In this document: one piece after another, positions 3-2,092 of the stretch
How the letters are laid out: every line of letters begins with the position of its first letter
Numbering within the stretch: position 1 is the stretch's first letter
NCBI RefSeq assembly: GCF_013315695.1
Contig: NZ_CP054353.1
From: Escherichia coli
GTDB lineage: Bacteria > Pseudomonadota > Gammaproteobacteria > Enterobacterales > Enterobacteriaceae
DNA length: 64,000 nt
Reading direction: 5' to 3' (one strand)
Made by a program: the position numbers and the translations under genes
Notes under the pieces: generated by a model
Seen by the model: the letters and a program-made list of their open reading frames with translations, nothing else
Told to the model about the DNA's origin: nothing
The model's database searches: none

Positions 3-585
3 CGTAATCATCTGGAAAACGTAGCCAACGCGCTCGATAAGCATTTGCAGTATAACGTCGACAAACTGATCTTTTTGCGTAATGGCATGCGCGAAGCTCT
101 CGTGGCGCCACTGGATTTCACCTCTCTGCGTAATGCCGTAACCGAGTTCGAACAGCATCGCGACGAGCACACCTGGCAAATCGAACTCAACCGACGGCGC
201 ACCCTGCCAGTCAATGGCGTATCGGATGCATTAGTCAGCGAGGGGAATCTCCTGTCTCGCGAAAATGAAAGCCTCGACAATGAAATTACCGCTGCACTGG
301 AAGTTGGTTACTTGCTGCGACTGGCGCACAACTCCTCGTCGATGGTTGAACAGGCGGTGTATGTCTCGCGTGCTGGATTTTACGTTTCGACGCTGCCGAC
401 CTTGTTTACGCGCAATGTACCAACGCGTTATTACGGCTATGTCACCCAACCCTGGTTTATCGGCCATTCACAACGAGAAAATCGTCACCGCGCGGTACGC
501 TGGTTCACTTCGCAACCGGAACACGCCAGCAATACTGAACCGCAGGTTACCGTCAGTGTTCCGGTAGACAGTAATAACTACTGGT
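3..585 (+). pseudogene. dgcQ: dgcQ (yedQ) diguanylate cyclase, 5' fragment interrupted by prophage insertion; gene start lies upstream of window
   Basis: Frame from position 3 reads [28 protein letters not shown]...VDSNNYW, matching the periplasmic N-terminal region of E. coli DgcQ as I recall it; reading frame leaves host sequence after NNYW and stops 13 codons later in phage DNA (track ORF 45..626). Confidence 0.85.
580..585. repeat. Left copy of 6-bp target-site duplication ACTGGT
   Basis: ACTGGT at 580..585 is repeated at 38077..38082; joining the flanks restores an uninterrupted dgcQ frame (..[11 protein letters not shown]..). Confidence 0.7.
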
Positions 586-631
586 TGATCAGACATGAGA
601 TAAATGAAGGGGGATCCGTGAGATAAATAAC
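586..631. repeat. Left terminal inverted repeat with two GAGATAAAT motifs (candidate transposase binding sites)
   Basis: tgatcagacatGAGATAAATGaagggggatccgtGAGATAAATA; reverse complement of the right end reads tgatgcgccgcGCGATAAATGcactctatcttgtGCGATAAATG, with motifs at the same offsets (11 and 34). Confidence 0.65.
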
Positions 632-946
632 GAATTGGAGTGGGTTAACATGGGTTCTGGTGAACAGAACTGAAATTCTTTTCCGCTATACGATAGATAA
701 GTCGGGCATTGAAATCATCCTTCCTGGCAACTTAGAATCGAGTTTGCTGAAACATGACCCGTAACAAAAAGGATGATTCCAATGACTACTCAAAACAATA
801 AGCATGACAGCCTGGATTACTCAGAAAAGCCCAAAAGCAAGCACATTGTGACGTTCGAGCGCGATTCCGGTAGAAAAGGAGAATCGTCTTCCTCTGCCAA
901 TAAAACCACTATGCCGGCAGCTCCTGCTCCAGGGAAAAAATAAACA

Positions 947-1657
947 TCATTCATCGTTCGTTGCACGAACGCGCCTGATCTCCACTCTGGCAATCTGATC
1001 TGCTGGAATATAGGTTGCCAGAGCTCCCCAGTACTTATCAACCACGCCTTTATACTCTTCCCATTCGTTACTTCCTGAAGGGCTGCTGTGCGTGACGTAA
1101 AGAACCATATCGCCTTTATTTCCCAGGGTAAACGGACCGTTAGGCCACTCTTCAAAGTTCCCTGGCAGCCGTGACATCATACCGGAACCATCGCGAAGAA
1201 TCACTCTGACCTCGGTGACGCTGAAGCCTGTTTGATCAAACATTGCCTGCCATGCTGAGCTGGTATTGTCAGACCATGAAATATCATTATTCCACAGTAA
1301 TCTGTACATCCATTTGCGACCGTACCTGCGCCACCACGCACCGCATGTAACGGCACACAGAAGTGCTGGGGGGGTTGCCAGCCAGGCATTCAGACCTGCC
1401 CACATAACAGCCTGGTAAGCCATCATTGCTGTCAGGCCAAAAATCAGCGAAGAAAAAGTCACCTCAATGGGTTTGTGGTGATCCTTCAGCCCCACATTCG
1501 CAATAAAATACCCAATATAGCCACTGGTCAGGGTCACCAGTGTTGCCCATGGCAGATTTAATAACGAAACGTCAAACATATTTTCTCCCGGCATCCTGAA
1601 TATTACATAGAGAGCATAAAAAAAGCACGGTAAAGGGTCTACCGTGCTCTTATACAA
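947..1657 (-). CDS. Hypothetical membrane protein (three predicted hydrophobic helices plus ~120 aa soluble C-terminal domain); last gene before the left prophage end
   Basis: Track ORF 236 aa; hydrophobic segments LPWATLVTLTSGYIGYFIANV, VTFSSLIFGLTAMMAYQAVMWAGL, ALLCAVTCGAWW; real start may be the internal Met (MFDVSLL). No family recognised. Confidence 0.5.
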   Translation of the reverse strand: MYKSTVDPLPCFFYALYVIFRMPGENMFDVSLLNLPWATLVTLTSGYIGYFIANVGLKDHHKPIEVTFSSLIFGLTAMMAYQAVMWAGLNAWLATPPALLCAVTCGAWWRRYGRKWMYRLLWNNDISWSDNTSSAWQAMFDQTGFSVTEVRVILRDGSGMMSRLPGNFEEWPNGPFTLGNKGDMVLYVTHSSPSGSNEWEEYKGVVDKYWGALATYIPADQIARVEIRRVRATNDE

Positions 1658-1693
1658 TAAGGAGATTTTTGAAAGGACTTTAACAAGCAGGAA

Positions 1694-2092
1694 TTATCTG
1701 GATTTGTTAACGTCTTTCGTCTCCTCTGGCAGATCTTCATCAAACAACCTGCCCTGCATCCGATCCAGTTCTTCTTTTCTGACCCGCTTAACCACGCTGT
1801 AGACCCACTGAAGCGAAACACCAAAATTGCGGGCCAGTTCGTGGTGGTTGCGTCCGTTAAACTCCCTGAAGATTTCCCGGTCGCGCTGACTGACCTTCCA
1901 TACCATGCCCATCGGGAAATAAACGTTTTGCCCGCCCCAGACCTGCATCATTCGGTTCGCGACGGCCTGACCAATCTGGTCGGCAATTGCGGGCTCAATA
2001 TCAATAATCTCGCGAACGGTCTCAGAGGTATGCTGTGCCAGTTCCACCAGGAGTTCCGGCCCTTTACTTCGAAACTGATTCAGGTCGCTCAT
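1694..2092 (-). CDS. mor: Mor/C-family transcriptional activator (middle operon regulator-like)
   Basis: 132 aa; resembles phage Mu Mor as recalled (..HHELARNFGVSLQWVYSVVKR.. C-terminal HTH); sits after the GemA-like gene as in Mu. Confidence 0.75.
   Translation of the reverse strand: MSDLNQFRSKGPELLVELAQHTSETVREIIDIEPAIADQIGQAVANRMMQVWGGQNVYFPMGMVWKVSQRDREIFREFNGRNHHELARNFGVSLQWVYSVVKRVRKEELDRMQGRLFDEDLPEETKDVNKSR

Follow-up and report, generated by a model that had tools for sequence, protein, structure and literature searches.

The membrane-protein gene near the left end of a transposable prophage of Escherichia coli, at positions 947-1579 on the minus strand of the window (the whole stretch of 64,000 nucleotides that was analysed), forms one half of a convergent two-gene cassette. 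An initial reading made from the sequence alone had regarded the locus as a single gene and had overlooked the partner, a small gene at 782-943 on the plus strand encoding a microprotein of 53 aa. Neither the conserved pairing of the membrane protein with a microprotein that ends in a proline-rich tail nor the antisense arrangement of the two genes appears to have been described before. Taken as a whole, the feature is real and moderately interesting, and it is a readily testable lead.

The membrane protein and its family

The open reading frame at 947-1657 on the minus strand exists as the sequence-only reading described it, directly downstream of the Mor-family gene at 1694-2092. The product of 236 aa, counted from a TTG at 1657, had to be shortened. 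The true start is the ATG at 1579, which stands behind a GGGAGAAAAT Shine-Dalgarno sequence and gives a protein of 210 aa (RefSeq WP_001571573.1, uncharacterised). This start is backed by the RefSeq annotation, by a PHROG profile of 210 positions, and by all homologues, which begin with MFD or MID. The three helices followed by a C-terminal domain, which had been predicted, were recovered in an AF2 model built from 42 homologues (pLDDT 85.6). The model places the helices at residues 11-28, 37-60 and 65-97, and a beta-rich domain at residues 119-205, with a short helix between helix 3 and this domain. The C-terminal domain (residues ~109-205) is predicted to be a cytoplasmic Sm-like beta-barrel, and its pI in the window protein is 4.8. 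The transmembrane segments are moderately hydrophobic, with Kyte-Doolittle maxima of 1.2-1.5, and the helices are rich in Gly and Thr. Hydropathy and the positive-inside rule predict an N-out/C-in orientation, the positive charges being located in loop 1 and directly behind helix 3. The dN/dS values of the gene, 0.08-0.21, correspond to purifying selection.

The statement that the protein belongs to no recognisable family was too strong. Its entire length of 210 aa matches phrog_12870, on all 210 positions of the profile (E 1.9e-133), and it lies at the periphery of Pfam DUF6338. Like the members of both families it has about 200 aa, the transmembrane helices coming first and a soluble domain last. 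Both families are of unknown function, so that filing the protein under them names it without explaining it. In Pfam the query itself had no match, and PF19865 (DUF6338) was not reached even at E <= 10, while the same family was matched by 11 of the 42 close and 8 of the 86 distant homologues (E <= 1e-3; best 2e-6). Judged from these profile matches, the protein may be a peripheral relative or a sister group of DUF6338. Its size and topology (210 aa, three predicted transmembrane helices; relatives of 196-233 aa) agree with the description of that family, which we take to be integral membrane proteins of about 170-230 aa. A profile search over 1.84 billion cluster representatives (clusters at 50% identity) returned at least 500 matches at E <= 0.001, of which 172 had E <= 1e-30; single-domain proteins of ~200-215 aa made up almost all of them. 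The relatives found by Foldseek in AFDB50 were mostly uncharacterised, with three labelled DUF421 and one annotated as an S-2TMbeta effector (A0A2E2SZZ5, E 1.7e-17, TM-score 0.73). Searches of NCBIfam gave nothing for the query above threshold (sub-threshold RhaT only, E 0.18), and the PDB profile search gave chance-level matches only. None of the defence HMMs in PADLOC-DB 2.0.0 was matched by the membrane protein or by the microprotein.

The convergent microprotein gene

The membrane-protein gene had been described as the last one before the left terminus, followed by ~320 bp of non-coding end sequence. The distance is in fact 361 bp, and it harbours the conserved microprotein gene with its own promoter. 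The microprotein (RefSeq WP_001571575.1; phrog_15726, E 1e-41) is hydrophilic and predicted to be disordered, with a pI of 9.7 and the C-terminal tail PAAPAPGKK. In the window the stop codons of the two genes are 3 nt apart. A convergent ORF of 36-58 aa was found at the corresponding place in nearly every locus with enough flanking DNA, enteric or alphaproteobacterial, in phage or island. The distance from stop to stop ranges from a 2 nt overlap to 8 nt in most loci and reaches ~100 nt in a few. Four loci were fetched later as a test of the presence of the partner, and all four carry it, one of them without an ATG start. The microproteins have in common an N-terminal M-[TS]-[DN]-K-N and either [DE][YF]SExPK or repeated [NS][YF]xPxT. 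The tail is usually of the PPxPxKK type, with some enteric versions ending acidic, and the sequence outside the motifs is poorly conserved. In eleven enteric loci only the microprotein frame is open, and the dN/dS of ~0.14, where measurable, corresponds to purifying selection. In E. coli the pair goes together, with full-length matches to the small-gene region in 117 genomes and to the membrane-protein gene likewise in 117. The exceptions are the Pantoea-type loci L013 and L044, where the microprotein gene is missing and the end repeats come directly after the membrane-protein gene. The microprotein is thus not an obligatory antidote.

Independent experimental support for the translation of such peptides comes from P. 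stutzeri, the subject of the sole report of them. There, three proline-rich peptides whose genes lie immediately downstream of a DUF6338 gene, on its strand, were detected by digest-free proteomics (PMC10433244). Two of them, ...APPPPKK (36 aa) and ...PPPPPKKGG (41 aa), gave 44-114 spectral matches, and the authors judged the peptides not to be conserved beyond that species (PMC10433244). We located this locus at CP036186.1 2666115-2667116, with genes for a DUF1156 methylase, a SNF2 helicase and a PLD-domain protein 14-20 kb upstream, a neighbourhood that suggests a defence island.

Several observations connect the two proteins of the cassette. The net charges of the barrel (C-terminal 112 residues) and the microprotein are inversely correlated (Spearman -0.63, p 0.0015, n=22, not corrected for phylogeny). 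L010 is an exception, and six further pairs fit this complementarity. Among the E. coli alleles the C-terminal domain diverges 3-4 times faster than the transmembrane part, and the partner changes alongside. In an AF2 model in which a (GGGGS)6 linker joined the membrane protein to the microprotein, the latter came out disordered (pLDDT 30-41) and undocked; the paired alignment of 22 rows was shallow, and the linker served as a workaround. Direct binding is consequently something that we infer.

The prophage and its termini

The cassette is situated in a BcepMu-like transposable prophage of 37.5 kb, which occupies positions 586-38076 of the window and is inserted in dgcQ in the E. coli chromosome. 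The nearest deposited phage is PhiKM, classified in GenBank as Bcepmuvirus. The prophage is bordered by the target-site duplication ACTGGT, at 580-585 and 38077-38082, and carries GATAAATG repeats with a spacing of 23 bp at both ends. At the left terminus (586-628) there are two TGAGATAAAT repeats, at 596-605 and 619-628, 23 bp apart, and at the right end (38076, reverse complement) there are GCGATAAATG repeats with the same spacing. These terminal repeats are presumed to be binding sites for the transposase. Relatives that lack the cargo have only the first ~40 bp of the terminus in common with the window. The first 2200 bases of the window are 100% identical to NZ_OZ547117.1 and NZ_LR898874.1. 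In other genomes the matches to the prophage end start at ~586, beside unrelated host genes (gudD, zraS, ptsP, kefF, mdfA), a pattern that is expected from Mu-type transposition.

The early genes run leftward on the minus strand from 9791 down to 1694 and comprise regulators, DUF3102, MuA-like, MuB-like, Gam, GemA and Mor. The last gene of this arm, mor (1694-2092), is annotated in RefSeq as 'Mor transcription activator family protein', and PF08765 is found in homologous loci. The lysis, head and tail genes are oriented rightward; the lysis cassette of this prophage, consisting of holin, SLT endolysin and spanin, lies ~11 kb off on the other arm.

Three further features of the region were recorded. 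The prophage splits dgcQ (yedQ), which encodes a diguanylate cyclase regulating cellulose synthesis, into halves at 1-584 and from 38083 onward. Both halves are marked by RefSeq as pseudogene fragments, and the strain is for this reason probably devoid of DgcQ. A gene for a Gin-like recombinase (~37426-37998) adjoins the tail-fibre and tail-fibre-assembly ORFs (window ~36228-37998), and the strands of the tail-fibre ORFs differ between the window and the RefSeq annotation of NZ_OZ547117.1 despite the identity of the first 2.2 kb; this suggests an invertible host-range segment similar to the Mu G segment. An IS1A lies beside a truncated fliR at ~41668-42466 of the window (coordinates converted from NZ_OZ547117.1), and this flagellar export gene appears to be disrupted.

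Distribution of the cassette

The view of the gene as variable cargo, or moron, held up in the genome survey. Counted at >=90% identity, mor-gemA of this type was found at 708 places and in 639 of the 5426 complete E. coli genomes, whereas the membrane-protein gene was found in only 129-131 genomes (138-140 places, even by sensitive blastn). The cargo is present in about 20% of the E. coli prophages with the same mor-gemA, and most of the mor-gemA matches break off at query position 41-44. Sampled prophages without the cargo (three prophages and phage PhiKM) have their left end ~160 bp past mor. When window positions 500-1800 were compared by blastn with L018, L019, L020 and L003, homology was confined to 586-625 and to the part from 1734, the 3' end of mor. 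Homology to the cargo-less relatives thus stops at 625 and resumes at 1734, which delimits the accessory module to 626-1733. The module includes the last ~14 codons of mor, and its place is taken by ~120 bp in the cargo-less relatives. The GC content of the cassette is not clearly distinct from that of the early region. Klebsiella phage KP12 was considered as a case of alternative cargo and rejected; its ORF after mor resembles a fragment of the small terminase, and the record is a chimeric "clone".

The cargo reading needs one qualification, namely that the gene is not a recent one-off acquisition. Prophages of Serratia, Citrobacter, Salmonella and Pantoea use the same slot after mor; compared with the window, they show only 49-63% identity in MuA, MuB and Gam, and 56-69% in the membrane protein. 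In E. coli the alleles found at this slot encode proteins of 210, 207 and 214 aa. Some alleles of the slot have an additional small gene after mor and ahead of the membrane-protein gene (L070 2243-2479, L008 7690-7977; 78 or 95 aa), and neither of these two matches PHROG or PADLOC. More distant members occur inside HK97-like alphaproteobacterial prophages between head-tail adaptor and tail genes (L016, L015, L057), next to HNH and terminase genes (L059), and between Mu F and Phage_tail_S genes (L065). Others were met in integrase/primase islands and beside HicB and Rap1a genes, with one on a Rhodobacteraceae plasmid and one in a Bradyrhizobium island. Judged from these sequence comparisons, positions 626-1733 are a mobile two-gene cassette which recurs in unrelated phages and islands. 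Among the records of isolated Mu-type and BcepMu-type phages none has the membrane-protein gene. The only homologue in an isolated phage, 29% identical, is that of Synechococcus phage Ssp-JY41 (PP438431.1 91-726), again at the extreme end of the record.

Solo remnants of the prophage left end, ~150 bp long and 88-89% identical, were seen on plasmid NZ_CP065153.1 (L077 2960-3110) and in ~185 other E. coli records. They retain the end repeats and the microprotein promoter, without either of the two genes. They are located on chromosomes and at 108 plasmid places, and many are from avian or chicken isolates.

Transcripts and RNA structures

Between mor and the membrane-protein gene there is a strong intrinsic terminator at 1621-1651 on the minus strand, with a 14-bp stem and a T-run. 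Eight enteric loci keep this AAAGCACGGTnGA...CCGTGCTTTTT terminator, 45-60 nt ahead of the ATG, and no conserved promoter was found in them between the terminator and the ATG. In other phages the membrane-protein gene abuts or, as in L065, overlaps upstream late genes. On account of the terminator, the lack of a promoter and the abutment to late genes elsewhere, lytic-cycle transcripts appear to be the source of the membrane protein, with the terminator attenuating them in this prophage. Expression in the lysogen, which a classical prophage defence needs, finds no support, as no promoter was detected. Counted from the centre of the terminator dyad, a putative start site that follows TAATAT lies ~43 nt downstream, a spacing that would fit a Mor-dependent promoter. 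The dyad was also considered as a Mor-binding site, and this was rejected because no similar dyad precedes the late operons and the single further match falls within the tail-sheath gene.

The microprotein gene is preceded by a sigma-70 promoter at 709-738 on the plus strand (TTGAAA-18 nt-TAGAAT; 10 of 12 consensus matches), the hexamers and spacing of which are kept in seven divergent enteric loci. This promoter and the 5' UTR of the microprotein gene are bracketed by a long-range hairpin at 707-784, with a stem of 17-20 bp formed by the arms 707-723 and 768-784, and one of the arms is antisense to the Shine-Dalgarno sequence and ATG of the microprotein. Folded as the minus strand, the hairpin has -33.8 kcal/mol (z -4.56, none of 200 shuffles as good), as against -22.3 (z -2.2) for the plus strand. 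Six pairs of the stem show compensatory changes, with 0 of 500 shuffles reaching the observed values. Read as the minus strand, 16-17 of 17 positions pair in six of the seven loci, since the A.C mismatches of the plus strand turn into G.U. This asymmetry and the folding energies assign the hairpin to the minus strand and thus to the membrane-protein mRNA, in its 3' UTR; an mRNA that reaches this far has to cross the whole microprotein gene in antisense. The same asymmetry and energies led us to reject an IS10-style fold-back that silences read-in on the plus strand. The hairpin is not a universal feature of the family, as it was found only in a subset of the enteric loci, and a search of Rfam gave nothing near threshold. 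An inward-facing terminator-like hairpin at 653-671 on the plus strand came from a pattern scan only, and its sequence is also present in a plasmid solo-end remnant; it may, as a weak suggestion, block transcription entering from host DNA.

Proposed function and alternatives

Our preferred reading, put forward tentatively and with less than even confidence, is a membrane effector restrained by an antisense transcript and by a microprotein that the lysogen would express, with a putative role in phage-phage conflict, i.e., superinfection exclusion or abortive infection. This role is proposed because of the patchy distribution, the mobility among phages and islands, the co-divergence of the C-terminal domain and its partner, and the analogy with effectors that combine transmembrane helices and a beta-barrel. 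The microprotein gene would be transcribed from its own sigma-70 promoter, presumably in the lysogen too. Production of the membrane protein would have to await read-through of the mor terminator by lytic-cycle transcription, or, in other phages, transcription of the late operon. The mRNA of the membrane protein would be antisense across the whole microprotein gene, and this overlap would help to restrain the membrane protein. The microprotein would add to the restraint by binding to the oppositely charged barrel domain. Once released, the membrane protein might oligomerise through the Sm-like barrels and alter the permeability of the inner membrane or the entry of DNA, and such membrane activity would, at the presumed time of expression, serve exclusion of superinfecting phages or abortive infection. 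The broader proposal, that the Sm-barrel membrane protein and the proline-tailed microprotein make up an unrecognised and widespread two-component conflict system of phages and mobile elements in alpha- and gammaproteobacteria and the wider DUF6338, is one that we regard as rather doubtful.

The main rival, ranked so for the gene's apparent dependence on lytic transcripts, is an accessory membrane function for the phage itself during the lytic cycle, such as lysis timing, a holin/antiholin-like activity or depolarisation, with the antisense microprotein gene serving only to silence it in the lysogen. The gene is co-oriented with and abuts lytic operons in every context (mor here, L065, L016, L057), and it has no promoter of its own. 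In BFVD its transmembrane part weakly resembles LydA/class III holins (E 0.007-0.05), and one distant member of the family matches Phage_holin_9. These similarities come, however, at TM-scores of only 0.2-0.4; the gene is missing from ~80% of near-identical E. coli prophages, and the prophage already has a cassette of holin, SLT endolysin and spanin elsewhere. A cytoplasmic Sm-like barrel and a co-evolving partner are moreover no part of what characterises holins. We consider such a lytic function unlikely. Several of the same observations can be read as an addiction or toxin-antitoxin module which stabilises the mobile element, with the membrane protein as toxin and, as antitoxin, the microprotein (type II-like), the convergent transcript (type I-like) or both. 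The stop codons nearly abut in most loci, so that the transcripts must overlap, the small gene has a constitutive-type promoter, the two proteins are complementary in charge, and the cassette is found on many kinds of mobile elements. Yet L013 and L044 hold the putative toxin gene without the antitoxin gene, the candidate toxin of 210 aa has a folded domain, unlike type I toxins, and lacks its own promoter, and an addiction module is not obviously needed by a transposable prophage. We find this reading quite improbable.

We give less credence again to a lysogenic conversion of host physiology unrelated to phages, in which the protein would be a small channel, a transporter or an envelope-stress factor. 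It draws on the inner-membrane location, on the layout of three transmembrane helices and an Sm-like barrel, which loosely recalls MscS-type channels, and on weak sub-threshold matches of single members to transporter families. The least probable of the readings reverses the roles, making the microprotein the active factor, a proline-rich peptide with its target in the cytoplasm, for instance the ribosome or a chaperone, and the membrane protein its lytic-induced antagonist, sink or exporter. It is the microprotein that has the conserved autonomous promoter, and the related P. stutzeri peptides were abundant in a data set in which the DUF6338 protein was not detected, membrane fractions having been left out. 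The motifs [NS]YxPxT and PPxPKK may resemble those of proline-rich antimicrobial peptides. Set against this are the weak conservation outside the motifs and the loci that have no microprotein gene.

If the pairing is functional, it would provide the first testable role for DUF6338-type proteins, which fill at least 500 clusters at 50% identity, and also a role for a class of proline-rich microproteins mostly missed by annotation pipelines. In that case, too, the known prophage cargo would gain a membrane effector regulated by a microprotein. Clinical E. coli, ST131 among them, commonly harbour the carrier prophage, and susceptibility to phage therapy could therefore differ between strains with and without the cassette. 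If the gene is merely a minor lysis accessory, the finding is an ordinary one.

Comparison with known systems

The S-2TMbeta effectors (CBASS Cap15, Panoptes OptE) resemble the query in having a short N-terminal transmembrane module and a small cytoplasmic beta-barrel, and in their occurrence in defence or mobile loci. Known members act as oligomers that disrupt the inner membrane (PMC12657218). The class is defined by a two-pass transmembrane element and a nucleotide-binding beta-barrel, whereas the query has three transmembrane helices, an Sm-like barrel and no linked cyclase. PF18153 (S_2TMBeta) was matched neither by the query nor by any of 128 relatives scanned singly, and genes for a CD-NTase or mCpol nucleotide synthase were absent from every neighbourhood examined. 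The likeness is an analogy and not family membership. The query likewise falls outside the holins, taken as small transmembrane proteins beside an endolysin in a lysis cassette, and outside the MscS-type channels, in which the MS_channel Pfam combines a TM3 pore helix, an Sm-like beta domain and a C-terminal alpha-beta domain.

Type I toxin-antitoxin pairs with convergent transcripts overlapping at their 3' ends are exemplified by txpA/RatA and bsrG/SR4 of B. subtilis prophages. As in the cassette, a membrane-protein gene of a prophage is opposed by a convergent overlapping transcript, and the small gene has a constitutive-type promoter. In our case the antisense overlap is implied by the near-abutting stop codons and by the minus-strand 3' UTR hairpin beyond the small gene. 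The type I toxins are peptides of <60 aa, whereas the cassette encodes a folded-domain protein of 210 aa. Its antisense transcript, in contrast to that of type I pairs, encodes a conserved protein under selection, and the arrangement is also viable without the small gene (L013, L044).

Inner-membrane proteins for superinfection exclusion include T4 Imm, P22 SieA and HK97 gp15, which are non-essential and encoded at variable genome positions. The query is similar to them as a phage-encoded inner-membrane protein of variable position, and no sequence or fold similarity to Imm, SieA or gp15 was detected. We know of no protein of this type with an Sm-like domain or a microprotein partner. The DUF6338 gene of P. 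stutzeri likewise has genes for proline-rich microproteins with PPPPKK ends beside it (PMC10433244); there the small genes are three and on the same strand, while the cassette of the window has one, in convergent orientation.
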